Positions 5,983-42,700 of a DNA stretch of 64,000 bases are shown here, in pieces. The stretch's first letter is position 1; each line of letters begins with the position of its first letter. The position numbers and the translations under genes were made by a program. The DNA comes from Takakia lepidozioides (taxonomy: Eukaryota > Plantae > Bryophyta), in the NCBI GenBank assembly GCA_030704615.1, contig CM060732.1, forward strand, positions 60,388,001 to 60,452,000, read 5' to 3'. The notes under the pieces are model-generated. The model was not told the origin of the DNA, made no database searches, and worked only from the letters and a program-made list of their open reading frames with translations.

Positions 5983-7471
5983 TCACCAACGCACTACAAC
6001 AAGCTGTGATTGACACTACAGGAACTTGCAGAAATAAGGAAAAGGTTCTCTTACGAGTGAGCCTCCAATCCAAGAATATGCTCTCAACTTTTGAAGTGTC
6101 AGCCGGCCTAGTATCACCATGGCTTCAAGCAGCAAAAATTCAAGTTTCATAGCCAAAGGACTCGAGCCAGCACTTTCGCAACACTGAAATTGATTACTGG
6201 GTTACAATATTAAACTCCAGTCCAACCCCGATTGCCTCCTTTCCATGCTTATCTAATGGATCCTCGCCGATATTCGTTGTTTCAATCTACATCCCCAGTC
6301 GAGATCAAGACCGTTCAAAAACGTCCGGTCCGTTGTTCCTCGTAAATGAAGGGTCAAGATGGTCCGACCATGACAGCACTAGTTGGATTGATAATTGGGC
6401 GCAGGGTGGCGGTTACCAAGTCGTAGGGGCGCTTCCATGCACGCCTCCTTCAACCACAGCAAACAAGTCCAGATGATGAGCCTCCACAAGAGAACCTGAA
6501 TCCTCACAAAACGTGATATGGAGTACAGTGGGGGGTGCGCTGGATACATTGAAGGAAGAGTTTGACTCCCCGGAGAAGTTCATTCATATGTAGAAAAGTC
6601 TCAAGTGAATCTGTGGGAACCTGGAAATCATAAGCCTGGAGAAATATACTTAATAAATCATAAGAGGCCCTGGCGCTATATTTGAGAATTTCTGACTGCC
6701 AGCTTTGGCTGGACGCAGTGATTCAAGGATCTATTGTTTATAAATTACAGATTCTTCCCTTTGCCTCATCAAGCTACGTGAATTTGTACGACTCATTATC
6801 GAAAGAAATTTTGTAGTTATATATTTCTTTAATTAGACTCCGTTTTAGGGGGCTCAGATCTGGTTGCTTATCGAGTAGATCTTATGATCCGTGGTGAAGT
6901 GATCGACATTCGCGAAATTAAGATACCTGTACTACCAGAGGACGTTCTAGTTTAAGAGGAAATCCTCCTTGGCTGAAGAAGTGTTGCCGAGACCATGCCT
7001 TGCCCTGAGCCAAAGCCTGCAAAGCCATGCGAGCCAACGAACCAATTTCCCGTAAGTCTTTGAGACGCCCTTCCGGCTTACGATTTCTTTCCTCACTCTT
7101 GAAATCATAGCATGGGATCATACATGCTAAATGGGCCGTGAGTAAGATTCAATGGCTTTGCATGGAAATATCTTGCTGTGAATATATAATCGTGATGACT
7201 CTGATTCGAGTCCGATGCCCAGTGTTGTGAACGTGAGGATATGGTTGGTCAAGCGCAGGCTTGATGGTCCTATCGGCAGAGATTTGTTCGACATTTGGTT
7301 TGACATTTGGTTGAGGTGGAGGTAGCCAATGCTCTTCCTTCGGTATATAACATATGCTGATCCTTCACAAAAGTACGAAAGGAAGCTTGGGTCCAGTGGA
7401 AACTATATTGAGAGGCATATTTCCTGACTAGAAAGTTTAGCAAGTGCAGCCTGGTCTATGAACTTCTTCCA

Positions 7472-8700
7472 TTGAAGACCAGGATCATGGTTTTCAATGG
7501 CCAAGCTGATCGTAAATTCATCTTCAACCAGCAGGAAATTGATATTGCGAAATCATACCGGTACCTGGGTCTGGTTATCCACTCCCCCAAGTTTCACTTT
7601 GCAGCCACTGCCCTGGACAGATTGACTAAAGGTAAGGCGGCCTCCGTCCGCCTTCAGGCCAAATGCAAGCAAATACATCTGCGTCATCCCCCAACCAAAA
7701 AGTGGCTGTTTGACACCGTCGTCAGCCCTGCTACCATCTATGCTTGTGAGTTCTGGGCACCTGGTGTCCCTGTCTCCTGGTGGGAAAAGAATTTGGAACC
7801 ATTACAGTCATCTTTTTCTCCAAGCAATGCCTGGCGCCAGGAGCACAACTCCATCTCAGATCCTAGGTGCAGAGTTCGCATGTGTACCATTGCAATCCGA
7901 GGCCCTCTTCCGGCTTACAATCTTTCTCCATAGATTACAGGCCCTTCCACCCAAGGGGCTCGTGGCAAGGGCCCTCACAACATCTATGAGGCTCAAAGCT
8001 GCAGGTTTCAGGAACTCCTGGTATTCTCGAGTGGACAGTTTATTTCAACGTAACGGACTTTCTACTGCTTTCCTATTACCAATGAATCCAGATGAGGTGG
8101 ACATCACATCCAGACATGACCGCAACAGACTCATTAGGAGAGAGCTTATGGAATTACATGTCAAGAGAACTTGGAAGCTACCCAATCTCACGACAAAGCT
8201 CCACTTCTATCGAGAGACATTCTTGGTGCTCCTCGATGATAGAATCTTGAGACCTTATTACCTTTCAGCATCCTTATCTCCTTCCCTCCTGAGGGCATTG
8301 GGGCGGTTCAGGGTGGGTTCCCACAACCTGTGGATAGAGACTGGCAGATGGGAAAACCTGCAACGGGAGGACCGCCTATGTCCAACTTGCATAGGGCGCA
8401 GCCAGGAAATTGAAACTGAAGAACACTTCTTCCTCTACTGCCCTCTATACTACGAGATCCGTGGGAGATGCCACTGTTTATTCAGTGGAACCCAAACTCT
8501 CGCTGATGTCTTCCACTATGAGGATAAAAAATGCTTGGCAGCCTACCTGCACGAGGCCTTCACCCTTAGACAATCGCTAGAACATTAATTCTTGGTTTCT
8601 GGATTTTTTCCTCTCTCATGTTTTCTTCCATTTTGTCCCATAAACTCTATGAGCTTTCCGCGGACGTTATAAAGCACCATTTCATTTCATTTCATTTCCA
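7472..8700 (+). mobile_element. 5'-truncated non-LTR retrotransposon (LINE, RTE-X-like) with (ATTTC)n tail
   Basis: RT C-terminal motif KTRIMVF...SYRYLGL, then ..YACEFW, a frameshift near 7810, then RFRVGSHNLWIETGRW..REDRLCPTC...ETEEHFFLYCPLY (CCHC finger). Stop at 8588, a short 3' UTR, and an ATTTC repeat tail at about 8679-8698. Clade assignment is from motif recall. Confidence 0.8.
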
Positions 8701-11534: not shown

Positions 11535-13003
11535 CTAAGCCGTGACCACAGGAGCTTGGTAGCCTTGTAGCATTCGTTCGACATACTTTCCAACTATGTC
11601 CACCTCCAGATTGACCTTGCCTCCTACCTGCATACGTAGTAGTGGTTCTCATGAGAGGTGAAAGCAGACTTGGTACACACTGGATCCACCCGAGTTAAGT
11701 GGACAATATGCTATCGTGGGACTAGAAGAGTTCCTAATCTTCCAATGTACAGTCTCTGAACAGAGCTGTCCAGGAATAGTTCAGGTTACAAGGTTGAGAA
11801 TATTAACAAATAGAAATAAAAAGGTTGTAATCACCTTCTTTCCAGGTAAGATGATTTTTTGTTGAGTGTAGGCCACAAGCATAAACGTAAATGCACTCTC
11901 CTTGTCAAGAACCTCAACCACCGTGAGACTTGTTCCATCCACAGCAATGTACCCCTTGGGAACAATATAGCGTAGAAGTTCTGGAGTGGTCCTTACTTTC
12001 ACCCAAAGTGAATCTTCCTCAGGCTCCATGGATAGGATTGTCCCTGTTCCATCGACGTGACCCTGAACAAAGTGGCCGCCCATGCGAGAGGAAGGCTGCA
12101 GTGAGCGCTCAAGGTTTACAGACGAACCTACTGCAGCCTCCCCAAGTGAAGTCCGTCGCAGCGTCTCAGGGGCCAAACCAACAGAGAAGGAACTGGAGTC
12201 AAAGCGAGTCACTGTCAAACATGTTCCATTGACGGCAATGCTATCCCCCAGCTTCACATCCTCTATGACTTTACTTGCCTCCACAATCATTTCAAAGCCT
12301 CCGTTGTCCAACACTTTCACTTCCTTCACTCTCCCCATCTCTTCCACAATGCCTGTAAATAGACAGCGCACCTGTGCCACCCGCCTGTTGCCCAGAGCAT
12401 TAACAATGTTATATTGGATCAAATTGAAAAGTGCAAAGTCCGAGAAAGGAAGACTATGCAAAACAGTTTTCCAAGGGCCAAAATTTCAGAATCTCCAAAT
12501 TCCATACTCATGCTTCCAGTTTACCTTTACCTTTCGTATGAAATTTGAGTTACATCTCACCGAGAAATGATCATGACACAAGATTTTGCTTCTGTAGTGT
12601 TCGTGAAAGTCCTGACTATCTGCTATTAGGAACTCTGCACTGCCCACATCAGAACCCATCGCATCAATCATTTGAGTACATCACGATTTCGACTGAGATA
12701 GAATCAAACCAATATAGGGTACAAAGTAACTCACCCGCTTCCATTGTTCTTAGCCCCAAGTCTGCCCTGTGACCGCAAATTCCAAGCCCAGTTAGTCCGC
12801 CCACAAAATTTGACTCGGAAACCTAGCCCAGATAGCTCCACGGAGATGCGAGAGGCTTGGAAACTTGGGTAAGAGGCTCTCATCATCAATCCAAGCTCTG
12901 GAGACGCAGAAACGGAGGCAGAAACAGCACAAATCGATGCTTGGGCTGACTTCTGCAAATATGGTGATGGCAAGAGAGAACACATTTTCATCATAATTGC
13001 CAT
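11535..13003 (-). CDS. RIBC: Riboflavin synthase (alpha chain) with plastid transit peptide, 3 exons: 13003-12735, 12384-11835, 11627-11535
   Basis: LFTGIVEEMG, GDSIAVNGTCLTV, VNLERS..MGGHFVQGHVDG, KGYIAVDGTSLTV, VNLEVDIVGKYVER. Intron phases are consistent; the N-terminal exon is Ser/Ala-rich. Confidence 0.95.
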
Positions 13004-14205: not shown

Positions 14206-15969
<1,764 letters not shown>

Positions 15970-17534
15970 CATCTTCGTGCGATAATAGGGAACACATTAG
16001 AACTCTAGTGGGAAAAATGTTGGGATTAGTACGAAATCTAGAGGACCTGGCATGTTCGGTATCCTTTCCGTGGAGCTGCGGACTGAGTATAGAGCTGGGA
16101 GATTTCATACACATTATTGAGTAGTTGAGCTGAAGATGCTCGACGATAGTTAATAAGTCTGCTGATCTGTGCAAGCTGACTGCTCTTGCACCCAAGCAAA
16201 CCATCATTCAACCAGACCAAATGTCCATCAGATGACCCCGAGATGTTGGCCGTCAATGTAAGTAACTGAAGTTGTTCCTGGATTGTTTCAGCGCGTTAAT
16301 GATTTCAAGATGTGTCTTTGATTGTGGATCACACGGGATTCCTACTTTTTCAAGCTAATTCCATCCATGATCTCACCAAACTTACGGCTGAGATGAGCCA
16401 CTACATAGATCGTCTCACGAATCCTATCTACCTCCTCTTGTGGGAAAAATATGGTCGCATCCGGCACAGGATGGACCTCCAACTCAGAAGCAGCGCCCAT
16501 CTCATATGCATGTGATACAATGATATTGCGCGTTTAGGCAAAGACTCGTGACTGTACGTACATTACATGATTTAATAATTAGCCATTTATTTTCTAATCC
16601 AAGAATTTTAAATTACCTGAAATTATGTCATTTGACATTTACAAAACACTAGAAGAATCCTAAAGTATTAGTGTTAGTATCATGGGTTCTTAGAACCCTT
16701 CTATCGGCTGATCGCTCTACCCTCGAGCACTCTATCCACTATCGTAACTACTCTCCATTTTGGGCTCTCTAACTTCTGCCCTCTGCCCTTTACATCGTGC
16801 TCTCTACCCCATGCTCTCTCATTTCTACTCTCCCGATTGTTGCTAAGCACACTCTCGAAGCCTTCTCTTATACTTTTTTTGGGAATAAGAAAACTAGGAA
16901 ATAATCATTAAACTAATGGGAAATTTGTTGGGCAAGCAAACTTGGAGACTTCCATGGAAACTTCCAATTTCATCCATCCATGAAATCTTTTTTTTATCCT
17001 TGAAAATTCATCCATCTTTCATCCTTGAAATTTATCCATCCATTTCCGTTCATCCACCTTCCATCCCTAGATTTTTCATCCTCAACCTCCGCGTAGCTCG
17101 GCTCCTCCACGCTCCACCTACAATTTGGCTTCTTGCAGGTGTTCTTGCTGCTCACCATCTCTCTCACATTGACTCTTTACTCACTAAGTGCAACTATTAG
17201 ACTACCTCCAATATAGCCGCTAATGGCTATCTATAAATATATGTTTTGGTAAAAACCGAAAAGCGTCGCAGTTACATGGACGTCGCAAGAAGGGATTAAA
17301 CAAAAAATATATAACTACCAGTAATTATTTATAAATTTGGAATTAAAAAGTGTCGCATTGAAACTGCGACGGCCAGGACAACGCAAGGGGCTAATACGGT
17401 ATAGTCCAATACCTTCGGAGCTGCCACACTTACAGAGCTTAAAGATGCACATATCGTACATATAACGTCTTAGGTTGGACCGTCCGTGCAGCTTCAACTT
17501 CAAATCGTGTAATAACTTCGGTCCATGTTCCAGT

Positions 17535-17890
17535 TGTCAAGTTAAATAAGCACAGTGTGAAAACAGCTAGAATAAAACTAGTTATTTGTATTTAACACTT
17601 GGATTTAGGTCAAGTGTTAAATCAGGTGTCAAGTTTAGTTTGACACCTGGTCCGTCTTATCTTCACGAGAGCGGCAGTCGCGCGGCTCATCTCTTTCGAG
17701 TTGAGCCTACGCGACCGAGCTCCTGCATGTGTTTAGGTTTGAGTGTGCTTATGTAGGGGTACATGTTGTTGTGGGGTGGAGTCCCCATAGCTTGGGGTGC
17801 CCCTGGCTCGACTTCTGTTTCAATGAGTGATAGCGATGGATTTTATATTTCTTGTGTTGGGAGTGTGTGTCCTTTTTAGCTTGTTTATCA
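17535..17890 (+). repeat. 5' terminal repeat A1 (356 bp; the 3' part of the LTR)
   Basis: Direct repeat of 28875-29230 (offset 11340, 6 substitutions counted by eye, no indels). Begins TG and ends TATCA. Contains three hairpins (AACACTTG..CAAGTGTT, AGGTGTCAA..TTGACACCT, GGCTCA..TGAGCC). Confidence 0.95.
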
Positions 17891-17902
17891 CTCGAGAGAG
17901 AT
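17891..17902 (+). promoter_or_regulatory. Self-priming-type primer binding site (not tRNA-complementary)
   Basis: CTCGAGAGAGAT directly abuts the LTR end. It is the reverse complement of ATCTCTCTCGAG at 29029-29040 (12/12) and of 17689-17700 (11/12). There is no TGG start. Confidence 0.75.
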
Positions 17903-19999
17903 CACGCTTGCATCTGTGAGTGCCAGAGGTGAGTTTAGTTTTAAGCACTTGGGGTTTTTGTTTTAGAAGTGAGAGAAGAAAATTATGGTAGATTATGTTT
18001 GTGACAAGGCTGGTGGAGCAGCAGGATGATGCGCAAATGTAAGGAAGACTATGTTTGTTGGTAGCTGCTGACAACCGTAACCCTATCCCTGGACTTCTTC
18101 TCCGGAGGTGGAAGACTGTATGCAGCATGCATGCAAGAGTGTGGTTGTGACAAGGGAACAAACGCTTGCGGTTGAATAGTTGTTACAAGTTGGGCACTCG
18201 GTGCGTCGCTATAACTGCAACTGTACAGGAGCACCGCGAGAGGCAGATTGCTCTACAGCCTTTGCTGTACTTGGTTAGTCCAATGGTGACAAATCCAGAC
18301 CTTGTTAAAGCAACATAGACAGAGAAGCGATTTATAGAAAGAAGGTGAGGAGCAGTGAAGAGTGTACGGGAAAGGGAGCCCTGGCAGCCATGGCATAGCA
18401 TCGTGCTCCGCACCACGGGTTATCTCGAAAGAATCGATGAAGAGTAACGATGCGAAAAGCCCGCTTACAGTGTTGAAAATATTCAACACAACCTGCGGAT
18501 TATCTACCTAAGTGCTTCTGAAGCTGCATGGATTAAGCTTCTTCAACACAGCCAATGGAGTGTTCATTATATGACAGTTATGACCAAGGAAGTGAGGAAA
18601 TGCCTCATCTGCTCAGCGCAAGCTTTCCCGCTCTACAAGCTCCACGCTCAAGCTCTCGCTCCACGCTATAGCAGACATGGTGAAATGGAAGGGATGCACT
18701 CGGCTTTGTGGTAGCTGAAGCCAAGAGACAGGGAAAACGATTGATACTCACCTTCACCAATAATTATTCTATCTTCGGTGGAAGACGCAATATGTGCAAT
18801 GGGCGAGCCAGTATGCTGGTATTCATCTGAATTCGGAGGATGGCGGCGTATGTGAAGAACTGGGATTCTAACCATGTGTTGGAGCTGCAGGGAGGTAGCG
18901 TGGTGGCGTAGGGTCGCAAGCACGGGGTCGGGGACATTGGCTGGTAGGACAGCAACGGCAGTGGTAGCGCCGGCCGGGTAGAAGGCTGAACTGAAATGCT
19001 TGGTGTCAGTTGGAATGACCAGCAACCTTTCCCTCCAGCAAGTCCACCCAACATAGCTCAAAGACAGAGGAGACCTGTGACCGAGATATGGAGTGAGTGG
19101 TTATCCAACCTTGAAGTTTGTGGCCAGTCTGAATGCTGTTGCTGCCCAACTTGGCCAGACACTCGGTACACGAGCTTGCAAAGCTGCAGGGAACATTGCA
19201 GACAAGTCCAACGGGGATGTTGCGGTGGATCAGTATACCGCTAGCGGGTATGCTTCTACATTGAACATGATCGCTACCTGAATTGAGATAGTGCCTTGCC
19301 CTATCGGAGTATGCAGACCTATGCTCCAACCTTCAACTAAATGACGAAGCTGATCTGGTTACTCTCTACTCTGTGGATAGTCCAACACAGTTGCCTTTGT
19401 CAATAAGCTCCTTCACCACTTCCACATTTGACACTAGGTCCGAAGATTGTCTGAAGAGAGAGCAAGTGCAGATGGCAGCTGCCCACCAGGTTCTGACAGA
19501 GTATCATCAGGGCTTGTCCCTGCATTAGGGATGGCTCGAGTGCTTGCATCATGGGAAACAGATGCCTGACGCTGCACAGGCCATCACCATCGCCATAGCC
19601 ATACACCCGAGCTCGAGAGTCGTCGCTGGAGCAAAGCAGCTCACTAAGCGAGCAAGTCTGTGGTACACCTGTAACCACAAATGGAACCTGGGAACGGTTC
19701 TTAATGGCGGGAACGTTTTGGTGTTAAAAAAAAAAAAAAAAAAAACTTTGATATAATTTAAATGATTTAGAGCCTGGTTGGTCATAACTTTGTCAAATGG
19801 ACTCCGTTTGACTCAGTTTTTGGGTGGATAGCTGCAGAAAGGGAAAATCTACATAACTACACCTGGTTTTTGTTTTGGGGACTCTGTTAAAAATCTGTGG
19901 AATTATTAGAGTGTGAGTGTGCTATGAAAGATCCACAATTCTGTGTCCAGAATCTGTTGTGGTCTACATGAGACATAAATCTGTGGATGTACTCCTTGC

Positions 20000-20749
20000 A
20001 TGGCTGGGGGAAATGAGGACGTAATTGAAGGGCAGGTCTCTTCTCTTAGCCTGTGCACACAAGGGGACAGGATTTATGTTTCCCAAGGAACTCAGACTGA
20101 TTTGAGTGGAGAACAGTTGGACGAGTTGATTGCATACTGGGAGTCAGGCATTAGCAGTAGACAACAGACTGTTGTAGTTGGCATTGAGGAGCTCAATATC
20201 GCCTTGGACAGTCAGAACTCTGTTGGAGCCAGCAGTTCTGCAGCTGTAGGTGAAATACCAAAGTGGGTGAAAGCTAGGCTTGGAACACAGCCAAAGACAG
20301 CCCCGGGGACCAAGGTGTTCAGCCACAAGGCCGTGGTGTACTGGAGCAGAGGAGCAGGAGCTACACAAGTTTGTGCAATCAAACATGGTTGCAGCCGGAT
20401 ACGCTCTGCACAGGGCAACCACGAGCGGGGGTTCATCAGCAATGACATGTTTGTTGTGCGTGAAGGAGATGCAGTCATTCGCAATGAGGACACCCGCAAC
20501 CGTCTCAAAGCTTTCGAGTTGAGAGACTATCAGACCCTACCTTTGTTTTCTTTAGTATTCAGTGAGCGGGAGATAGGGGAGTATTGCTTTGTCTCTACCT
20601 GGCAGAAAGAGGAGGAGGGTTGGTTAGAGCGAGCTACTGTAGCTTGGGACAAGGTTATTGGCAGGTTTCTGGACATAGATATACCTCCTACACCTTACCA
20701 TCATGCAGAGCGAGGCACTTTGAGAGAAGTCTGGCAGTTGATAGTATAG
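20000..20749 (+). CDS. Uninterrupted 249-aa accessory ORF of unknown function inside the retroelement, upstream of gag
   Basis: ATG-to-stop ORF with globular composition. No motif recognised. Confidence 0.6.
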   Translation: MAGGNEDVIEGQVSSLSLCTQGDRIYVSQGTQTDLSGEQLDELIAYWESGISSRQQTVVVGIEELNIALDSQNSVGASSSAAVGEIPKWVKARLGTQPKTAPGTKVFSHKAVVYWSRGAGATQVCAIKHGCSRIRSAQGNHERGFISNDMFVVREGDAVIRNEDTRNRLKAFELRDYQTLPLFSLVFSEREIGEYCFVSTWQKEEEGWLERATVAWDKVIGRFLDIDIPPTPYHHAERGTLREVWQLIV

Positions 20750-21268
20750 ATCAGGATTAGATCTTGCTTGGTCGGGCTTCTATTCTTCCCCTCTATCTCT
20801 GTAGTATTTTCATTACCTTGTACTTATAGTTGCCAAAGCCTCTCTTGGTGGAGGCCAGTCAGTCCGGGGTTTTGGGCTGGGCTATTCTGCAGGATCAGCA
20901 TTGCAACTGGATTTTGGTGTGGGGGTGTTGATGTTTTGATTTCTTGTGTTTGGATCCCCCCCAACACCTGCATGCTTGACTGTGCGCCATGTTGGTTTTG
21001 TGTGGGCGCTTGCTGTCATAGGGATTAGGCCGGATTTGATCACCGGTCAATCCTAGAGTATGCTGTCGGTGGTGAGGCTGGAGTGATGACCAGCAAGACC
21101 ACCAGTGTTTCTTCTATGGTGAGGCTGGGTTGATGACCAGCCAACCATAGGAGTTCTTGCGGTGGATGCAGGTGCAGGTGCCCTGAGCCATTGGGATATG
21201 ACCCTTAAACTGCAACAGGTACCCACCCGTGTCATTATTAGATTAGTACTAGAGCCTTATAGTGTCAC

Positions 21269-21851
21269 GTGGAGGAGGTGCACATTGTGAGTGTCATTAT
21301 AGAGTTACCCAAGGGTTTTGAGGGGAGTACAGCTACAGGCAGTAACAGTGAGAGTGGGTTCACAAGACGAGGTATCCGGTTCAGACCACCTTCACCGCCA
21401 CCCTCAATTACTGTAGAGTCAGACACAGACTCGGAGGCTTCATCAACAGGTATGCACTTTCATTCGCCATTGTTGTGGGACGACATGGAGGAGATGTATG
21501 GAGCTACCAAGGGGCCTCGTAGGTACTCTGGAGCTGTGGGCACAATTGAGTTGGATGACTTTATCCAGGAGTTCGACAGCTGGTGTGATTTGCAGCAGAT
21601 GCGCAATCCACAGCTATTCACCCCATTCATGGCGTGGAAGGGACTGTTCCAGCATTTGGAAGGCCCGCCTATGGACGATTACCACGAGTTCAGGCGAGGA
21701 CATGAAGCAGAGATTGAGGAGTGGAGGATGTATTGGTCACCTGACTACGTCTCCATTACTCGAGGCACGACGCGACCAGTAGCTGCATCAGTACCAATAG
21801 CTCCCACTGCCAGCACTAGTAGTGGAGCAAGTAGTGCTGGTACTTCTGCAG
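21269..21851 (+). CDS. gag: Gag, N-terminal part (cut by the inversion breakpoint)
   Basis: RYSG....ELDDFIQEFDSWC...KGLFQHLEGPPMDDY is capsid-like. It continues on the minus strand from 26550 (SSKG..PRFNP.VEFF..KLRSLQDFQHKTSESLREA). Confidence 0.7.
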
Positions 21852-23010
21852 GCATGCTCCAATCTGTATGCAGCTGAAAAGGACGCCCCCTGATAGGTCG
21901 TCTCAAGATGGGCGCTGAGGTCAACCTCGCCTTGAACTCTTGAAAAGCTCATTCTTGCTCATCTTCCCACTGCCACTCCTGGTCCACCTTGGTCAGCTTG
22001 GTTAGAGCCTTTGCAATGGCACTAAATCCCTTAACAAACCGTCTGTAATAGTTTGCTAACCCCATGAAAGCTCGAACTCGGCTCACATCCGTGGGGCGTG
22101 GAACCTGTGCAATGGACTCTACCTTAGTCTGCTGTACCCCCAATCCTCCAGGATATATCATGTGACCCAGATACTCAATCTGGTTGTGGAAAAACTTGCA
22201 CTTGCCTGGATGTAACTTCAATCCGTGCGTCCTCAAGCGCTCAAATACCCCCTGAAGGTGTCTCTCATGCTCCTCCACCGTAGCACTAAAGATGATGATG
22301 TCATCTATGTAGCACCGAGCAAACTCCACCCCTGCTAGAATCCTGTCCATGACTCTTTGAAACTCAGCAGGAGCGTTTTTAAGCCCAAATGGTAAGAACC
22401 GCCACTGGTATAGGCAATTCTTCCCGTGCTCATTGATCCCCCAGAATGCCGTCTTTTGCTTATCCGCCTCCTTGATCGGCAACTGGTGATATCCGGATCG
22501 TAAATCCAACGTGCTAAAGACCTTGGAATGCCCAATGGCATCAAAGATCTCCTCTGGTGTTGGCATGGCATACCTATCAGACTTGGTCTGACGATTTACA
22601 GGCCGGTAATCACCGCACATACGTCTCTCCGTCCAATTGCCATAGACATCCTTCTTAGCTGGCATCACTGTGGCTGAAGCATACTCTCCACCAGAGAACT
22701 CCACCAAACCTGCCTCCCAGAGATCTTGAGTCCTCATCTGAATCAAAGACCTCTCCATGTCACTGTATCTATAGGGTCTCCAAAAGATTGGCGTGTCAGT
22801 GGCCAACTCAATACGGATCTCTTGACCCTTCAGTGCTCCCAAGTCCTTCAAACTGAAGGCAAAGCAATTCCTGTAAGCCCTCAGGAACTGCCGTATACGT
22901 CGTCTCTCTCCTCCAGTGACAATGGGTCCAATGTCAAGCTCCCAATTGTCCTCCGTAACTGCAACCTTAAGTCCAGTGGGCTTAGAGGTAGAGGACGCGT
23001 CCCGTGATTG
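21852..23010 (-). CDS. pol: Reverse transcriptase and start of RNase H (inside the inverted block)
   Basis: RMCGDYRPVNRQT, FSTLDLRSGYHQ, LPFGLKNAPAEFQRVM, YIDDII, KCKF..IEYLGH, FMGLANYYRRFV, then APILRRP..PFQLHTDWSM. In-frame TGA at 21949. Confidence 0.97.
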
Positions 23011-23319
23011 CTATGCTGCAACCTCTTGAGCAGTACCCCCTTCCTGCTCAGTCAATGACAAGGCCTCATCCTGCCCCATCATCTCATCATTGAGAACCTC
23101 CTCAACCCGAGAAGAATCCCCAACCTCATCCATCACAACTGCCTTGGCTGCCAACTCCCTCTGAACCTCGAGCACCTCCCACGTGTGCCATGGATGTCTA
23201 CACCCCGTGGTCCTCACCGGCTCGCCCCCACTTGCTGCCTGTACCGTCTCGGTAGGCAGAGAGACCATGAAGGGGAGTGCACTCCGCACTCTACGTTGCT
23301 CAGCCATAGCCAAGCTGAT

Positions 23320-24262
23320 AATCCAGGTCAAGCAATTGAGATCCATTGCTTGCCCCAACACCTGACGCCGTGATGCCTCAGAAAGAGAAGGCACCGCCGT
23401 GGTCCCAGTGGAAAACCCCATAGCCCGCTCTCGCTCGTCGGCATTAGGCTCCACTAACTGCTGCAACTGAGCATCCCACAGGAGGCCAAGTCCACCATCT
23501 CGAAAAGCATGGGATCTTGGGAAGCTAAGCAGTGTAGGTAATGCTGCTCGTGGTTGACCCACCCTGTTGACCACTGCCAAAGGCGAACGGTCATCGTGTC
23601 TCACACGTTGAGACTGCCTTCCTGTGTCCAAAATGCCATCCACGGTGAGGTGTGCTGGCCGCTGCACCCCATCAAATGCACGCTTGAGCAGTGCGGGTGG
23701 CATCAAGTTAGTCCACCATAGTCGTGGACGATGAGCCCGTGACCCCACTGTAGCTGCATCCAGCAACACTGCTGACCCAAGCCACGACCGGACTTGATGC
23801 ACACTGGCCATCACCCTGGCCCGAGAATCACCCATCAGCGGCACATTCTCTAAGATGTATGCCGGAGATACAGCTTGATGAAGCTGCAAGTGACGCAAAA
23901 TCCGCACCATCTCCCAAAACAGACCCGTCCTCGAGTCTAGCAATCCATTGCCATGCCCGGCTGATGAATGCCCTTGGCAGGGCCAACCTGCCACTACCAG
24001 ATCAATGGAGCCAACCCGCTCCAAATCCTGCGCCCCCAGCAACGCAATGTCTACTGGCAAGGCCTGCTGATATCCACGAACTGCAGACACCGGCAACAAC
24101 TCAAGGTACTGCTGCAGCATCTGAGCAACATGGCGCAGTGAGACGCGTCGTGCAGTCTCATCCCTCTCCACATACAGGTAACGTCGAACTCATACACCTG
24201 CCTGCAGCACTGCAGCCAATCCAGTGCTGATCCCGCCAAATAAGTCCAGAAGGCATATGCCT
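23320..24262 (-). CDS. C5-cytosine DNA methyltransferase domain (DNMT3-like) embedded in the pol polyprotein
   Basis: Motif I LDLFGGISTG, II YLYVERD, IV DLVVAGWPCQGHS (catalytic PC), VI ILENV, VIII AHRPRLWWTN, IX ERERAMGF..GTT, X RRQVLGQAMD. Same frame as protease and RT; one TGA at 24190-24192. Confidence 0.93.
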
Positions 24263-24689
24263 TCATCCGGCCGCTGCCACACAAGAGGTGTGGTATCCAA
24301 TGGCGACAACTGAGGTTTCCCTGGTGCAATCACCGCACTCTCCTCCTCTCCTAACGGTACAAAAGCTTCTACCCAAGCTTGTTGCACCCGTCTATCAGCA
24401 GCTTGCTGCAAATCCTTGCTCGTACCCCACAATGGAGTGTGAGCAACCATGGCAGGCAACTCCACCGTACCATGCATGTCATCCTGCTCTGCTGGAGGTG
24501 GCACATCCTCTGCATGGGCATTGCCTTCCAGCAACTCTCCAGGCCAACTAACTGCAGCTGTGAAGGCAGGTAGTGTTGGTATCTTGCCCCGTTGGGCAGC
24601 TGCAATACCCCCAATGAATGTCACAGGGAGCTGTGCACGGCGACCATCCCCTGACTGCCATCCAGGCCTGTAGAATGCTGACTCCTCCC

Positions 24690-25010
24690 AGAAGTCCAGG
24701 GTGAAGCCCATGGGGTATAACACTGCCCCACCAACGAGGACATCGTAAGAGACCGCGTCTGTCACAATGGCCTTGGCTCGCATCACTGAGCCATCTACAG
24801 GATGATCCGGCTGCAGTCTAATAGCCAACTGATGCCATGTCATGCCCCGCACCTGCTCTGATCCTCCCAGAGATGTCTGTATCTGGAAAGGACAAGGCTC
24901 CATATCCGCCTCCATAAGGCCCAAACCTGCAATAGCAGCTCTGCCCAACATCAGTGGCTGGGCTCCCGAGTCCAACAAGACCCGCAGTGGCCGGTACTTC
25001 TTGCTTGCCG
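24690..25010 (-). CDS. Retroviral-type aspartic protease
   Basis: RVLLDSGAQPLMLG ... SYDVLVGGAVL in ORF 24190-25494. Confidence 0.9.
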
Positions 25011-25494
25011 GTCCACTCAAAGTGAAAATGCCTCCCTGGTTGTCTAACAAGACAACTCCAGGTGTCACCGTGGCGCGCTCAAAGGCTGGCCTAGCTGGCA
25101 GCTCCGTCAATCTGGCAGCTGCAGCTTGCCAGGGCGCTACCGTGGCAGTCTTGACCCTCAAATCCGAGGATCCCTCTGCCACTACACCTTCCACTAACTC
25201 CGCAGAAGATGAAGTGACCTCCCCACTCTCACAGAGTTTTGCTGCGATTCTGAACACTACTGCAGCTAGTCTCTCACTCCCTCGTTTCGCAATCATGTTT
25301 GCCGAGACAGTTGGGCTTGACACAGAGTGGCTTGCCACCCACAACACCCCCCCCCTGCTGCCCCTAGCCTTTGGGTCAGGTGTCAGTGCTGCAACGTGTA
25401 GCATCTCCCCGATGGCATAGTTCACCTCTCTGCAACCTCGTGGCCTCTGAACTCGTGCTGCTCCTCGAGTCACGGCTGTCAGGGCAGACGCCAC

Positions 25495-26550
25495 GCTGCT
25501 CTAGTGGTAGTGCTTCTCCGCACATGAATCCCATGCCTCCCATATCTCTCCCTCATGAGCAGGAGGTGACCATCATCCCGCCTGGGAGCCGGTAAACCCC
25601 AACCTAACCGCCTGGCTATTCCTTCAGCTAGCCTCTGCTCTAGCTGCTGAACCGTATTTTGCCATGCCTTGGTCAACAAAACCGGACCTCCGCGTCCTTG
25701 GCCATGGGAGCTTGCCCTTGGCCTGCACCTCGTGCCCTACCACTCGTCCTCTTTGGTCTGGTCACCTAGCGCCCCCCCCCCGCCACCATTGTTCACCTTG
25801 GAACTGGCCTGGGCGGCAACTCAGGATGCAAGTCATAACACTGGGCATCTCCATGGCCCCATACTTTGCCACAATGCCCACATTGCACTGTGGCAGGCTG
25901 TGCTTGTGCCGTCCTTTTGCCACTCTCTAGGGCAATCTCCCTTGACATGGGGTCCCTCCCATGTCCAACATATCACCCCTGGTTGCTGTTGGCCATGCAA
26001 AAGATGCCACGGGCCTCTGCACCTGAGGTCCCCTGTAAGCTCCATGGAACTTGGGCTGGGCAACCTTGCCCCCCTGTACCACGCTGTGGGGCATCCCCTT
26101 GTGCCTGTGGGCTGACAGCTGTGCCCCGTTGCGGCATGTCCTTATGTCCTTGCCAAATCCAATTTAACAAGAACAACGCGCTCCTCCACCACCATGTTGA
26201 GCTCAATCATCCGCTCAGGCCAGCAAAACACATCTGCTAATGTGGGTTGGGCTGCTTGTAACAGGGTTGCATCTCGCACCCTTCTCTTGAGCTCCTTGTC
26301 CAGAATTCCATACCAAAACTAGATTGCCTGAACTTCAGTAACCCTTGGGTCACACTTATCAAGCGCTCAACGATGTAACGCCTCTCTCAGGCTCTCACTG
26401 GTTTTGTGCTGGAAGTCTTGCAAACTTCGCAGCTTCTCTGTCCGTACCCTTGGTAGTTCCTCCGCACTCCTGGAAGAACTCCACCACCGGTTGAATCTAG
26501 GCACATGTGTTGTAGTCGTGGCAGCGAGAGTAGTAGCCCACCTTTTGAAC
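25495..26550 (-). pseudogene. gag: Gag C-terminal part with degenerate zinc knuckle(s), frameshifted (inside the inverted block)
   Basis: FWYGILDKELKRRVRDA..PTLADVF; ICWTWEGPHVKGDCP knuckle remnant; several single-base indels. Confidence 0.7.
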
Positions 26551-26553
26551 TGC

Positions 26554-28330
26554 TGGGGGAGCGGTGCTCACACAGGTGATGATGAGGAAGAGAGTTCGTA
26601 GTGGCTTAATGCTAGCCGCTCGAACAATGCTGCAGAGTCTAAGTATAAGCTCATATGAGGGAGAATGCTTAGCTGCAGTGTGGGGCCGTGGCACACTTCA
26701 GGGCTATCTATACGGCAATCTCTCTTCACCCTGTCACGGATCACCAACCACTCAAGTGGTTGATTGGAGTCAGACAGCTTACGGGGAAGCTTGCACGGTG
26801 GGCACTCATCTTTCAAGAGTATGACTTTCATGTGGTGCATCGACCGGGTTTGGTCAATCGCAATGCAGATGGATTGAGTCGCATCCATGCACGAGCCAGC
26901 AGGATGACACTGAGGCTCGGTGGCATGGTGAGACGGACAGGAGATGGTGTCCTTGATGGCAATGCATCTGCATTTCTGTGTATCTTGCAGCGGAGGCCAG
27001 GTTGGACCTTGCAACAGGGATACTGTAGATCAAGTGTCTGAGGACCCTGAGACCAGCAATGAGCAAGGTGGCGCCAAAGATATACATGAGGATTCAGTTG
27101 TGTTGGACTACCTCCGCACTGAAGACACTACAACAGCCACTGTGAGGCCATGAGAGGGATCGGATCCTACAACGATCCAAGAGGTTCAATTGGGAGGGGA
27201 CACACCTGCTCCGAGTGTGGGAGGATGGTCGAGTGAGGATTGTGCCTCACCCAACACAGCGGGCAACGGTTAGTGCGGCATGCCCATGAGGAGTTGGGGC
27301 ATTTTGGGGTGTTCGACGCCCTCATAGTCTACTGCAGGGACAGTATGGTGGCGTGGTATGCACACAGAGGTGCAACAATTTGTGGCTAGGTGCATGGTGT
27401 GTGACAGGGTGCGTGCTTCATTCAACGCCCCCTACTCCACATTGCACCCCTCTTCCGATCATGGGATTGGGCTACATGTGGAGTCTTGACTTCGCAGGGC
27501 CATTGCACTTGACCATGACATGGTGGCGCCACCAGTACGTGTTGGTGATGGTGGAACACTTCTCTCCAGTGCATTGAATTGGTTCCATTGCCTGATAAGG
27601 CTAGTGAGGGAGCTGCGTATGCATTCTTGGATTGTGTGCTTAGCCGATTCGGTGCTCCAGCTGAGGTACTCACGGACCAAGGGAGAGAGTTCTTGGGGGA
27701 GTTTCAGGCTTTGTGTGACAAGCCTTGATAGACCCCGCACCACTTCTCGGGATCATCCTGAGGCCGATGGCTTGGCAGAGAGAGTTGTTCAGATAGTAAG
27801 AGGGGTTTGGCAAGTATGGCTTGCAGAAGGGACACCTAGGAGATTGGGGACCTTCAGTTACCCTGTTAGTCATGGGCTACAGGTTCAGCAAGCAAGCATC
27901 ACTTGCCTCCTTCTCACCATACTTTCTTCTCTTTGGCCGAGAGCCGGATTTGCCTACATCCATTCGCAGAGAAGCTGCTACAGTTCTTAACCTTGACGAT
28001 CCGGACGTGTGGGCACGTGCATGTGAGCAGCGTGCAGAGTTGTTCAAGAGAGTCATGCCCATGGCTTCGAGAACCTTGCCATTGCACAACACGTGATATG
28101 TTGAGGTATGCTACCATACGTGGTGGGGCCTATCGTCCTGGGGTTCGGAGATTCAACCCTGGTGACTATGTCTATCTCAACAGACTGCTCCTACGACCCT
28201 GGATGTGACTGCAGGACGTGTTATTTTGAGGGTTCGAGAGGTCTTGCCTTCAGGCGTCTTGGTCTTGGAGGGTCGGGATGGCATAACTTGGAAGGACCAT
28301 GTGCGTAATTGTGCGCCATGTCACCTTCCG
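26554..28330 (+). pseudogene. pol: RNase H remainder and DDE integrase, multiply frameshifted
   Basis: GAVLTQ..ASRSNNAAE..SSYEGECLAAVW..VTDHQPLKWL..GKLARWAL..YDF.V.HRPG..NADGLSR; HEELGHFG...C..C zinc finger; WSLDFAGP, LTDQGREF.GEF, HPEADGLAERVVQ, FSPYFLLFGREP. Confidence 0.92.
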
Positions 28331-28384
28331 AATGTCGATGGCAGGATTGACCCAAACCTGGCAGTGGTATCTGCAGGTTTGAGG

Positions 28385-28519
28385 TGCATGTTGTGTGGGT
28401 CTGCTAAAGGGGCAGCCACCATGCTGGTGTTTGATCGATGCTCTAGAGGTTGGCATATGGGATGCTTGACTCCACCTCTTGAGATGGTTCAAGATGAGGA
28501 TTTGGTTAGTCCCCATTGC
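28385..28519 (+). CDS. PHD finger at the integrase C-terminus (partly degenerate)
   Basis: CMLCGS....TMLVFDRCSRGWHMGCLTPPLEMV....LVSPHC follows the C4HC3 PHD pattern, including the H..CL.PPL signature. Two Cys positions are altered. Confidence 0.8.
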
Positions 28520-28776
28520 ATTGGATAGTGGGAGTGGATACAACCATGGAAGGCTAACAAGAAACGCAAGGCCCAGCTACTAGAGACCTTGAACACACGA
28601 GATCCTGGCTCAAGTTCAGAGATTGCAAGACGGCGACTAACGATGGGGCTACTCTTGTACCCGGCCTCTTGGTCTATAGAGTTTGAGTACAATAGGGACA
28701 GTGATAGAGGACTTAGTACGGTTGTGGCTATTTCATCTTGTAGCTATCTGGAGGTAGAGGGACCTATCCACCAGCT

Positions 28777-28785
28777 AGGGGGGCG
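28777..28785 (+). promoter_or_regulatory. Polypurine tract
   Basis: AGGGGGGCG followed by AT and then the LTR start TG at 28788. Confidence 0.75.
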
Positions 28786-28787
28786 AT

Positions 28788-29230
28788 TGTGGCAGACTAC
28801 TTTATTGTGCATATATGTGTGGTGTGGTTTGGACAGCGATGTAGTTGTGTAGCGATATGTATGCGCACGACAGCTATCAAGTTAAATAAGCACAGTGTGA
28901 AAACAGCTAGAATAAAACTAGTTATTTGTATTTAACACTTGGATTTAGGTCAAGTGTTAAATCAGGTGTCAAGTTTAGTTTGACACTTGGTCCGTCTTAT
29001 CTTCACGAGAGCGGCAGTCGCGCGGCTCATCTCTCTCGAGTTGAGCCTGCGCGACCGAGCTCCTGCATGTGTTTAGGTTTGAGTGTGCTTATGTAGGGGT
29101 ACAGGTTGTTGTGGGGTGGAGTCCCCATAGCTTGGGGTGCCCCTGGCTCGACTTCTGTTTCAATGAGTGATAGCGATGGATTTTATATTTCTTGTGTTGG
29201 GAGTGTGTGTCCTTTTTAGCTTGTTTATCC
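28788..29230 (+). repeat. Complete 443-bp LTR (B1 28788-28872 + GC + A2 28875-29230)
   Basis: Starts TG right after the PPT. B1 matches 29233-29317 (1 mismatch in 85) and A2 matches 17535-17890. Confidence 0.9.
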
Positions 29231-29232
29231 AT

Positions 29233-29317
29233 TGTGGCAGACTACTTTATTGTGCATATATGTGTGGTGTGGTTTGGACAACGATGTAGTTGTGTAGCGA
29301 TATGTATGCGCACGACA
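29233..29317 (+). repeat. Terminal repeat B2 (85 bp; the 5' part of the LTR, placed at the element's right end)
   Basis: TGTGGCAG...CGCACGACA followed directly by the TSD CAGT. Confidence 0.93.
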
Positions 29318-29989
29318 CAGTTTTAGCTCTCTATACTAAATCTCAAATTACACATAGTACAATACTAATCCATTATAATAATGCTTCATATGACCGTACT
29401 CTTTATAGATAATGGTGTAACTGTCTGTTGACCAAATCATAGCCGCTTCATACTAACCGTGATTACCTCTTCAGACTCCATAACCGCTAAAACAAACATC
29501 ATATCTAGCATAACACTACAAGATTAGATAAGCATATTTCTCGAGTGATATGTGATATTAAACAAACAAGAACCTTAACATTTCACTCAATGAAACCGGA
29601 GTCAAGCCAACTGCACCCTAAGGCTATGAAGAATCTACAGTACGGTGCCATAGTCAGAAGAGGAAGGCTCAACTCGAGAAAGATGAGCAACGAGCCTCAC
29701 CACGTTTGCCGTGAAGATAAACCACGCCCAAGGGCCAACAAATCTCTTGACTCTTGGATTGACACTTGTCAATATATAAAAATTAATAAATTCTTAGTTA
29801 ATAAAACTTATTATAAATTCTTATAATTTTAGAATTGCTAAACTTATTAAATTGGCATCTAAGCTACGTTAGTGTGTTTACTATGTATGTTATGTCCAGT
29901 ATATATAATCCTGTATTCATCCATAAAAAATACATTAAAAATATTTTAATGATTTAAATTAGATTTTAAAATATTACTATATTAATTAC

Positions 29990-35377: not shown

Positions 35378-37102
<1,725 letters not shown>

Positions 37103-39719: not shown

Positions 39720-42700
39720 TCAAAAGTTCTGAACCTCCTTGGTTGGGCGATTTCGAGCCTGTATGTGGGGTAGAGCTGGTGGGCCGATCCATGATAAAAT
39801 CACAGGAAGAAGGACAAATCCATTTAAGAATGCCAGGACACCCATTATCGTGAACATTCCAAAATAGTACAGCCTGAATGCATGGTATCTGCACCAGAAG
39901 AGTAGAGATCAGTGATTGTCTGGGAAACGTTAGCACATCATCTAGTATCGTCAACTACTTGAAGAGAAGCAGCAATAAATCAAACACTTTAATCAAGGAG
40001 GACCTATGAGACAAGATGAGAGGGAGAGACAGGTGAATGTCAGGCAGAAAGCTTACTTCACAAAGATGAGAGGAAATGTTGCAATAAATTGAGTCCCAAA
40101 ACCATGTAGAAGAGGTTCTAAGGTCCACTCCAGAGCTTTTCCCACACGGAAGTTGCGGGTCCCGTCTACCACCAAGAAGGACCTTGCCAAGTATGTGAAC
40201 TCCGATGCCATACCGATCTGCAATTTGTAGTAGTACATATTGGCATTCAAAGTAAGTTCCACATATAAACCAGAGAACACCACCACCCTCATGCGTTGCT
40301 CTTATGTGCGGACAAATCCATATAGACAACATTTGCCCTTGCCTCTTTGGACAAATGAGACTCTAATGAGATGCTAAAGCTGCATGTACTTCATGACGTC
40401 CGAGGAAAGCTCAAAGAGCTTATGGGACAAGAGAAAGCAAGAAACAAGAAAGAGTGAAAGAGAGTGAAAGTGATGAGGAAAGAGGGGTAATGAAATGGTG
40501 CTTTAAGAAAGACTCGCGTTGCATGATACAAAGTGATTCAGGCTCAACAAATCAAATGCAGGAGTAATGCCATTGGCAGGTGATAGCAGAAGAACTCAAG
40601 CAGGGCAATGGGAGATCGCTTGTGCAACTTACAACAATGCCAAGATTAACAAGTGACAGAGCTGCCCGTTCCAAGCCGCAACATATGCATCCAATACAGC
40701 CAGCAAGTCAGGTTAATCTATGGTCAACAACAGTATATAGAGGTAATATCTGCACATCCACAGCATGCTTCATCCAATTCATATCAATCGATGGAAAAGA
40801 TAAAAGAGTAATCACAGCACTCCTTGAATTCCTTCCCAGACCACTAGATACAGTTTCGATCAAGGGGACCATATACAAAGCTTCAGCAAGAAAGGAAACT
40901 GCTGTGGTCCCATGAACATAAGATATATGGCATAGAATGTCACCATTTAGTTTGGCGCCAATGATATAGATGAAGCCATAGACTTCAAGGTCAACCATGA
41001 GCAAAACAATGGCAATGATGAAGGACATGGTGATGCTGAACTGGAAGACAAGCACTGCAATAAACACTCCCACTTTCCATGTACAAAATTTGAATATATT
41101 GTTAGTCATAACACGCAATAAAGAGCTCCGGGATTTTTCATACCCCACATCATCTCATGAACAGTAAAAAGGAAAAAGACCCTTCTGTTATATCTGCCTC
41201 TTCCAGATTCGAAGATTGTTAAGATGAATGATGAAACAAATACATGAGAAGTACTTGCCACACAGAGCCGTTACAACCTGTCAAATTATTTACGGCACAT
41301 AAACAACTGTTCCCAAAACAGTGAGGAATTTACAATACTTACCCAATGCCAGGCCAACCACCAGGTAGAGATCATGGTAGCTGTGTAGATATTGCTCAAA
41401 ATAGAGGAACGGGTAACCATACATGTATGCCACCTTCTGACCAAACTTTGTATTCAGGTCATCTACTGTCTGCCTTGTTGCTTTCATCATGGCCAGATTG
41501 GGTTGAACTTCAGCGCCCAAGTGACCTGCAAACAGCTGGCATGATAGAAGAGGGAGAGTTTTAGGTACAAATAATGGCTTTCAGCAAAAGAAACTGGAGT
41601 TTGAAATAACAAGGAAGGTCTGTTCAACAATTGTTGCACCACTTCTCAAGGGGAAGTGTCATAGTGGTTATTGCCTGAAGAGTACTCACCACCGTCTTTG
41701 AGGCCCCAATTCGGAAGTTGGGATTCGGCCTGTATCCTGGAGCTCCAGGGTCCACAAAGCAGCTCAAATGCTCTCGGGATAAGGCATCCTCACAGTACAG
41801 ATCCTGCTGGGACACTATACCTGAGAAACAGCAGAAAAGAAACAGAAATCAGTTCTCTCTAATTGTGCAACTCTGGTCCCAATAAGTGGCCTTCTCTAAA
41901 GGCATACAAGTTTGCAAAGAACACAGTCTGTCATTACTAGCCGTCTCAGGTCACTTCCAAGTCAATCAGTCAGACTCTGCAGAATTGCAGTGATGAGAAA
42001 CATGTTGATGTGACTGGAGTAAAAATAAGAGGACATGATGTTTCAATAAACATGTTGCACGCTCCTAATCACTAGCATAATCCATCAACTAGTTGTGCTT
42101 ACCAAGAGGGGAAGACGACCATGGCTTTTCGTACGCATAGAAAGTTACATTGGGTGGCAGAGGCCAGCCTACTCCCAGAGACAAATTGTTCCAGAGGTAC
42201 ATGTTACCAAGAAACGAGGTTTCTAACACCTGGCCCACCCTCAATGCGTTAGTTGGCTGTGGAATGAATTAGTGAGAAAAACCACGCCAAGTGAGAGGAG
42301 AAACAACGTTTGGTCTGATGTAGTGATTTAGACAAAATATAAGTCTAGATGTTCCAATGGAAGGTTTTTCTCTGCTCTCACGCGCAATATCCAATGTCAG
42401 GATGTCTACAAAGTGTAGCAAATTTTATTCCGTCCAGATGATAAACTTTTATAGCTATTTGGCAAGCTTTACAAGAGAAAAAGCTCGGATCGCTGATGTG
42501 AAATCCAGGCTGCTGGGATCCTGAACCTGTGGGGAAGATATAGCTGATACGAGGTCATAGGCCTTGAATCACTGTCATGACTATTGGCTGTTAGGACTAA
42601 CCAGGAACCAAAGAATTGATCAGTCAACCATATTCCCTCCCTCCTGTCTCACAGATCATACCCTGGGTTGTGCGGGTGCCCACTGCGTCAAATTCTGAAG

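Follow-up and report, generated by a model that had tools for sequence, protein, structure and literature searches.

The 64,000 nt of contig CM060732.1 (positions 60,388,001–60,452,000, assembly GCA_030704615.1) from the bryophyte Takakia lepidozioides, hereafter the window, contain a Ty3/gypsy retrotransposon whose polyprotein includes a DNMT3-like C5 cytosine methyltransferase (DNMT). The element reads Gag, protease (PR), DNMT, a conserved in-frame stop, reverse transcriptase (RT), RNase H (RH), integrase (INT) and a PHD finger; its repeats are arranged as A-coding-B-A-B, it is bordered by a 4-bp target-site duplication, and its DNMT is under purifying selection. The copy in the window is dead and internally inverted. 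The DNMT ends the Gag-protease frame ahead of a UAG codon predicted to be leaky and, in what we consider the probable reading, an enzyme made at the level of Gag would methylate newly synthesized cDNA. A preliminary description, made from the nucleotide sequence alone, had instead proposed a plain fusion within Pol in an element with ordinary long terminal repeats (LTRs).

A DNMT3-Like Domain between Protease and Reverse Transcriptase

The coding features of the window copy are given below. L numbers designate metagenome loci, which are the best 80 of 302 confirmed matches, and P numbers designate proteins.

21485–21852, plus strand: N-terminal part of gag, homologous to the N-terminus of Marchantia P0004
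21853–26552, minus strand: internal inversion (remaining gag, PR, DNMT, RT and start of RNase H), right break approximate
25500–26552, minus strand: C-terminal part of gag, frameshifted (tblastn match to P0004 gag; indels versus other copies)
24613–25083, minus strand: aspartic protease (LLDSGA), by motif and by Pfam on homologues
23281–24279, minus strand: DNMT3-like C5 cytosine methyltransferase domain, interrupted by a stop at 24190–24192
23005–23013, minus strand: conserved stop in the readthrough-type context TAG CAA TCA
21952–23010, minus strand: reverse transcriptase (YIDD; RVT_1), followed by a stop at 21949–21951
26549–27041, plus strand: remainder of RNase H, frameshifted (PF17917 and PF17919 matches)
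27152–28078, plus strand: DDE integrase, frameshifted (tblastn; rve and H2C2 zinc finger in the intact relative L019)
28166–28528, plus strand: integrase C-terminus with PHD finger (PF00628, E 6e-5, slightly below the cut-off; E 3e-10 in L019)

Translation of the minus strand from 25500 to 21870 revealed the protease, the full set of C5-methyltransferase motifs and RT, all in one frame: the Asp codon of LLDSGA (24970–24972), LFGGISTG (24220–24243), the Cys of GWPC (23977–23979) and the Glu of ENV (23848–23850) are followed by AHRPRLWWTN, ERAMGF and RRQVLG and then by YIDD of RT, in the same frame as LLDSGA. The motifs occur in order between protease and RT, as had been described. The shared frame is interrupted by stops at 24190, 23011 and 21949, the second of them between DNMT and RT. 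The placement of the DNMT between protease and RT stands, with the correction that the segment is inverted inside the element, the start of gag, the integrase and the PHD finger being on the plus strand.

The DNMT matched PF00145 above the cut-off (E 6e-13) and RT matched RVT_1 (E 5e-33). The best match of the DNMT among solved structures, with an X placed at the break made by the stop, was DNMT3A (E 6e-11), and the wording of the motifs that had been likened to DNMT3A is present in that alignment; the predicted model (pLDDT 88.5) also has DNMT3A as its best fold match (6f57_D, E 3e-19). For RT the best match in the PDB was Ty3 RT (E 1e-47), in agreement with the initial assignment to Ty3/gypsy. 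The domain is intronless and unrearranged, and retains the catalytic Cys, Glu and Arg. It shares motif order, fold (TM 0.70 by query) and catalytic residues with the catalytic domain of human DNMT3A/3B (PDB 6f57, 6w89), whereas identity is only about 22% and the domain of the element lacks PWWP and ADD. The protease of the window was not called by Pfam and is assigned from its motif and from homologous regions, where Asp_protease_2 was found in L019 (E 2e-4, below the cut-off) and, above the cut-off, in P0307. We conclude that the DNMT3-like domain is real; it is encoded by the minus strand and has protease on one side and RT on the other.

A Conserved Stop Separates the DNMT from the Reverse Transcriptase

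The stop at 23011, TAG CAA TCA, fits UAG-CAR-YYA, which is the type I readthrough consensus typified by tobacco mosaic virus (TMV) according to PMC3542737; for the TMV signal, PMC2754532 gives a readthrough of 6–32% in plant reporters. Among the close-clade loci with a scorable DNMT-RT junction (n = 26; L037 was left out because its gap is too long), 22 have a stop here (15 TAG and 7 TAA), three have a frameshift in the linker and one a deletion. A strict CARYYA follows the stop in the window, L019, L020 and L057, and a context of this type occurs in two of three lineages. Locus L019 has a single stop in 2417 codons (TAG CAG TTA), which separates a 1369-codon Gag-PR-DNMT frame from a 1047-codon RT-RH-INT-PHD frame in the same register. 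TAGCA is unchanged across seven aligned junctions despite diverging flanks, CARYYA follows none of 323 decay stops, and the distance from stop to RT (15, 21 or 22 codons) preserves the frame in every case. Additionally, 43 of 49 proteins that end after PR-DNMT stop 52–180 aa past the DNMT domain; those of Marchantia and Calypogeia end 70–74 aa past it, which fits the position of the stop, its context being deduced in this case from the protein ends. The deletion in L018 was considered as a possible spliced copy and rejected, since it has no AG end.

Within the family of the window, TAG is retained in a contig from run X5 (depth 231; contig depths from runs X1–X7 do not equal copy numbers) and in one from run X7. 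Among the rows listed, from a table with 17 more, the X7 contig has 11 differences over 22940–23385, all at positions other than the stop context, and the X5 contig has one, at 23007, that still matches CARYYA. The stop-bearing elements form a single clade in the RT tree. An open DNMT-RT frame is found in a group at greater distance (13 of 34 loci), as well as in P0305 and P0307–P0311. As a side observation, a single-frame group comprising L033, L034, L041, L043 and P0303–P0312 mostly has GWEC, not GWPC, at the catalytic motif.

These comparisons indicate that the stop at 23011 is not a product of decay, and that it is a conserved stop separating Gag-PR-DNMT from RT-RH-INT-PHD, at odds with the proposed plain fusion of the DNMT to RT. 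A conserved readthrough-type UAG after the DNMT implies, in turn, that this enzyme is likely made at the level of Gag. Very probably, ribosomes would mostly halt at the UAG and a minority would read on, as at the TMV signal, so that Gag-PR-DNMT would be produced several-fold above RT and integrase; the position of the stop predicts the dose of DNMT. In-frame stops of murine leukemia virus gag/pol, Tca2, SIRE1 and TMV-type sites are comparable, as described in PMC3542737, PMC2754532 and PMC2194720, in being a single in-frame UAG with CARYYA, but the stop of this element comes after protease and DNMT and not after gag, leaving two enzymes on the abundant side.

Split Repeats, Predicted Self-Priming and Integration Ends

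The element spans 17535–29317, from TGTCA at its 5′ end to ACGACA at its 3′ end, with CAGT on either flank. Its terminal features are as follows.

17531–17534, plus strand: left copy of the 4-bp target-site duplication (CAGT), identical to 29318–29321
17535–17890, plus strand: repeat A1, TGTCA being the start of the element
17689–17701, plus strand: predicted self-primer in A1 (predicted 5′ end of the RNA), 12 of 13 bases pairing with 17890–17902
17890–17902, plus strand: primer-binding site, complementary to repeat A
28777–28785, plus strand: G-rich polypurine tract, directly 5′ of B1
28786–28872, plus strand: repeat B1
28869–28878, plus strand: B1/A2 junction, differing by one base from the palindrome GACAGCTGTC; predicted to be the site of integrase action
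28875–29230, plus strand: repeat A2
29231–29317, plus strand: repeat B2, ACGACA being the end of the element
29318–29321, plus strand: right copy of the target-site duplication

The order A-coding-B-A-B was also found in L032, L038, L041, L043, L067 and L076. Instead of the ordinary LTRs of the preliminary description, with a single canonical repeat at both ends, the left end is A and the right end is B. The repeats of the window copy differ by 5–6 of 356 nt (A1/A2) and 1 of 87 nt (B1/B2).

The 13 nt that follow A1 could pair with a site at A position 155 (12/13 for the copy in A1, 13/13 for that in A2, 29029–29041), and none of 200 shuffles equalled this complement. An exact complement of 10–14 nt at A positions 155–171 occurs in seven of nine elements, with three different sequences, as in the self-priming sites of the Tf1/Sushi-Tcn1 type. 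Likewise, a G tract lies 5′ of B1 in all 11 elements in which the start of B1 was printed. With a primer site after A1 and a G tract before B1, the copied unit is therefore likely B-A. We are highly confident in the corresponding prediction that the RNA starts within A and primes itself in the manner of Tf1, and that the plus strand is primed from the G tract, which would yield a cDNA of the form (B-A)-internal-(B-A).

The meeting point of B1 and A2 reads GACA-NN-TRTCA in 11 of 13 elements, and its variants would be those expected from deamination of CAGCTG. Exact 4-bp duplications flank six of the eight elements with both ends printed, as well as L059. The TG...CA ends and the 4-bp duplications match the B1/A2 palindrome, suggesting that integrase cuts within the repeat; human immunodeficiency virus integrase cuts an internal junction palindrome in vitro, as reported in PMC1905944. 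A staggered cut after CA in the palindrome would give processed ends like those of retroviruses. The A2/B2 junction differs among copies: it is precise, lacks 2 nt, or has B2 shortened to 29 or about 7 nt, with a constant CA end, as would result from end-joining. We lean, by a small degree, towards a sequence of events in which integrase would cut the internal CA^GC^TG palindrome, both TG/CA ends would be inserted with a 4-bp stagger, and the outer cDNA ends would be joined before or after insertion, creating A2/B2. Random opening of two-LTR circles was considered and rejected, because the mirror product A-B-A-internal-B was found in none of 24 loci with A1.

As a separate observation, the 3′ ends (n = 23) consist of B-A-B in 11 cases, B alone in nine (L014, L015, L023, L024, L027, L033, L063, L068 and L073), an end with a remnant of B2 in two, and one truncated where its contig stops; an exact 4-bp duplication was found for L014. 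Copies ending in B alone could derive from one-LTR circles or from recombination between B1 and B2.

A different origin of A-B-A-B, possible although we hold it to be doubtful, is that it is regenerated as in Ngaro/PAT elements, by a template switch to a circle subsequently opened at the B/A junction, with no participation of host end-joining. The repeat order equals that described for SymbioDIRS (PMC5890265), a single permutation was observed, and four of 12 printed A2/B2 junctions are identical, these within one family. Against this, the polypurine tract before B1 and the primer site after A1 are in keeping with a B-A unit synthesized in the ordinary LTR manner, the A2/B2 junction varies among copies, and the element has a DDE integrase and 4-bp duplications. 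Internal cutting by integrase, our preferred explanation, offers a testable answer to how an element with a DDE integrase comes to have DIRS-like split repeats. Elements of this kind are likely missed by tools that seek two matching LTRs.

Possible Role of the Methyltransferase

By a slight preference, we propose that the DNMT is active, is carried into the particle together with Gag and methylates the cDNA there or close by; new copies would then arrive already marked. Methylation of cDNA was suggested by de Mendoza et al. (2018) for their elements (PMC5890265). The main rival, which we judge unlikely, is that the DNMT works in trans, its targets being integrated copies or the chromatin of the host and not cDNA, as self-restraint or in competition between elements. 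Synthesis at the level of Gag would provide far more enzyme than two cDNA strands require, the PHD finger shows contact with chromatin, though on the integrase side, and a benefit to the host is among the readings raised in PMC5890265; nevertheless, fusion to Gag-protease would send the DNMT to the particle, and whichever of the three observed domain orders an element has, the DNMT is kept inside its polyprotein (see below).

Several observations count against cDNA methylation by a Gag-level enzyme and the steps that lead to it. The element has no extra loss of CpG (observed/expected 0.47, versus 0.50 in the remaining window), and the Klebsormidium domain was inactive in yeast, a result that the authors call inconclusive (PMC5890265). 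The ratio of nonsynonymous to synonymous substitution (dN/dS) of the DNMT is 0.27–0.74 among decayed sister copies, and the synonymous divergence (dS) of the window is close to saturation. As regards the stop, 18 of the 22 stop loci (Sphagnum-like) have CAACCC or CAACCT and one locus has TAACCC; the Sphagnum-like group has an ATG three codons 3′ of the stop; the codon is TAA in seven of the 22; these 22 loci represent two lineages (three with the window), some being likely one locus assembled twice; and a candidate RNA stem 3′ of the junctions has z values from −0.6 to −4.3 (−1.6 in the window). As regards the ends, a clear self-primer is missing in L067 and L076, L074 and L076 have no palindrome, and the one-sided A-B-A-B outcome (mirror product 0/24) means that the step at the internal palindrome needs an unexplained bias.

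RT and integrase might also arise through splicing of the RNA, from an internal promoter or by re-initiation rather than by readthrough, in which case the DNMT would remain on the Gag side; we regard this as quite improbable. Ogre elements are spliced between protease and RT, and gene models from Marchantia and Sphagnum, also at variance with readthrough, connect DNMT to RT via predicted introns, for which P0008, P0012 and P0041 have an acceptor region in common; their predicted donors, however, vary among models, and the linker is coding-like (42–50% AT) and keeps the frame at three spacer lengths. Splicing or re-initiation would agree with a pyrimidine tract that accompanies the ATG 3′ of the stop in the Sphagnum-like group, but the first Met of the RT frame in the window is residue 85, within conserved sequence. 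As Tca2 shows, a lone in-frame stop is not always a canonical readthrough site (PMC2194720).

Taking readthrough, self-priming and internal cutting together, we put forward, only tentatively, that a set of Ty3/gypsy elements in the green lineage, one that abounds in mosses and liverworts, abandoned end-based integration, primes itself, opens an internal palindrome and has its outer ends joined, giving A-B-A-B, and that a leaky stop loads a Gag-level DNMT that methylates the cDNA and may choose which palindrome is cut. Full-length Gag-PR-DNMT frames are present in the Marchantia gene models Mp_4g09160, Mp_5g06330, Mp_5g06860, Mp_Vg00370 and Mp_Vg00540, and would allow the role of the transposon's own DNMT to be tested in a model plant for which methylation mutants exist.

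Distribution and Selection of the DNMT Domain

A search of longer proteins retrieved 82 hits, the top ones from Calypogeia (75% identity), Marchantia (61–75%) and Sphagnum (48–57%), and a second protein search retrieved 62; over these three genera the identity of named relatives is 57–75%. In IMG/VR, none of 15 pattern matches was confirmed as a relative. The window clustered with the rows of Calypogeia, Marchantia and Sphagnum with a support of 100 in a quick DNMT tree which, like the FastTree comparison of RT and DNMT, was midpoint-rooted and built without rows from host DNMT3 or Klebsormidium nitens. RT and DNMT distances were correlated (r 0.79, 50 elements).

A near-complete DNMT was present in 116 proteins, of which 49 end after PR-DNMT, 19 continue into RT, 30 place RT ahead of the DNMT, 13 pass from the DNMT to integrase without RT, and five were unclassified; the DNMT is within the polyprotein in each of three domain orders. 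The 30 proteins with the DNMT between RNase H and integrase (among P0042–P0072 and P0315–P0330) form a separate RT clade, and the Chromochloris protein P0058 clusters with their DNMTs in the quick tree. This grouping and the second domain order imply that the domain moved within Pol and likely reaches chlorophytes.

The dN/dS of the DNMT was 0.08–0.12 between the window and six loci (at dS 2.1–2.6, near saturation) and 0.08 with L020 (at dS 5.6), and was saturated with L019 and L041; it was 0.14 for L019/L020 and 0.09 for L041/L033, similar to RT. Values between families (0.08–0.14) are below the Ka/Ks of 0.2 taken as the criterion of purifying selection, and neither neutral evolution nor a one-off capture, two of the three refutations named in the preliminary description, overturns its reading. 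The DNMT3-like domain characterizes the family and is under purifying selection. That it is a one-off or neutral capture of a fragment of host DNMT3, or an assembly chimera, is extremely improbable and for the family already refuted, since many independent contigs, and named genomes as well, carry the domain at the same position, with dN/dS about 0.1, even though the window copy is broken, inverted and indel-rich over 25.8–28.1 kb and may include assembly errors.

Relation to Known Elements

The kinship with published algal elements that had been proposed holds for KnitGypsy-Dnmt3 of K. nitens, with which the element shares, by the description in PMC5890265, the Gypsy domains, an intronless and unrearranged DNMT3-like domain, DIRS-like repeats in the A-coding-B-A-B layout and purifying selection. 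In that paper the DNMT is placed in the Pol ORF, whereas here a conserved in-frame stop splits it from RT and the host is a land plant; a self-priming site, an internal palindrome and a target duplication are not mentioned in its text. This comparison is by description and involved no K. nitens element sequence, and no protein of the named K. nitens element was among the hits of either protein search (82; 62). The window element has the Ty3/gypsy enzyme order PR-RT-RH-INT, but not a single open frame through DNMT, RT and RNase H, which share a frame that the conserved stop divides; therefore, we file it as a variant of the Gypsy-DNMT3 kind and not as a member.

SymbioDIRS-Dnmt3 and Ngaro/PAT elements, as described in PMC5890265, also have A-coding-B-A-B repeats and, in SymbioDIRS, a DNMT3-like domain, reported there to be active on CG in yeast. 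They differ in having a tyrosine recombinase, in place of the DDE integrase, TG...CA ends and 4-bp duplications found here; no tyrosine recombinase family appeared in the ORFs scanned by Pfam, and an rve integrase is present. Tf1/Sushi and moss Tcn1 chromoviruses, in the account of Neumann et al. (2019; PMC6317226), are likewise Ty3/gypsy elements with a self-complementary primer site, and occur in non-seed plants. They carry a chromodomain at the integrase C-terminus, where our element has a PHD finger, and the DNMT and split repeats are particular to the latter in this comparison.

A Gypsy form was described in Klebsormidium in the founding paper (PMC5890265), and according to a 2019 review, land plants such as tracheophytes lack transposons that encode a methylase (PMC6338049). 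What was known is therefore the algal Gypsy-DNMT3 element with split repeats, to which the present comparisons would add a conserved readthrough-type stop, a predicted self-priming and an internal palindrome with target duplications. In a literature search covering few subscription papers we found no paper on bryophyte Gypsy-DNMT3 elements, on the readthrough site or on the ends, and the name KnitGypsy-Dnmt3 was found only in PMC5890265 and in a 2026 preprint. A 2026 preprint and PMC12344493 speak of "streptophytes" in their texts, and their supplements may include bryophyte copies.

State of the Window Copy and Neighboring Sequences

The window copy is inactivated by the stop at 24190 and by the 4.7-kb inversion. 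At the former position another letter is read in 5289 of 5332 units of contig depth in X2, in 100% in X5 and X7, and in 106 of 115 in X6; with this other letter in 92–100% of contig depth, the stop is rare or absent in other copies and private to that of the window. Contigs from X5, X6 and X7 join 21852 and 26537 on opposite strands, an X7 contig links the end of RT to 26558, and relatives are colinear across the region inverted in the window; the inversion may instead be an assembly error. All 12 indels listed versus other copies, from a table with 130 more, are within 25815–28065, and are possibly assembly errors as well, whereas 22940–24260 has no indel versus other copies at a 55% share. 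Other copies are also rearranged: L013, L016 (about 6215–6338) and L042 (4973–5263) have repeats in the reverse orientation ahead of gag.

Two further features lie in the 5′ leader.

18115–19745, no strand assigned: low-copy insertion with a run of about 20 A at its end, bounds approximate (drop of contig depth in runs X1, X5 and X6)
20000–20749, plus strand: extra ORF of 249 aa upstream of gag, family unassigned, with high depth like that of the core

The insertion had no Pfam matches above the cut-off; one of its frames reads YGVSGYPTLKF, which we take to resemble a fragment of thioredoxin or protein disulfide isomerase, also without a Pfam match, and the insertion is possibly a retroposed chimeric RNA. 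The extra ORF has 23 unnamed relatives (27–49% identity), no Pfam match and no counterpart in the 80 metagenome loci.

Outside the element, a dispersed family of 50–100-nt repeats, MITE-like (miniature inverted-repeat transposable element) or regulatory, occurs in both orientations at 8589–8698, 40386–40452, 43039–43772, 45255–45344 and 47257–47346, with an inverted pair around 43160–43772. The host genes in the window comprise riboflavin synthase, two exons of class III peroxidase on opposite strands, a sterol-sensing (NPC1-like) exon and a pentatricopeptide repeat (PPR) gene, located at 11781–12485, 15532–15969, 35378–35812, 45929–46447 and 57712–58593. The peroxidase and PPR genes mark the host as a land plant, and riboflavin synthase points to a probable bryophyte. 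The neighboring riboflavin synthase is 85–86% identical to Sphagnum-containing clusters, 82% to Calypogeia, 76% to Selaginella and 74% to Marchantia, a comparison of one gene made without a tree.

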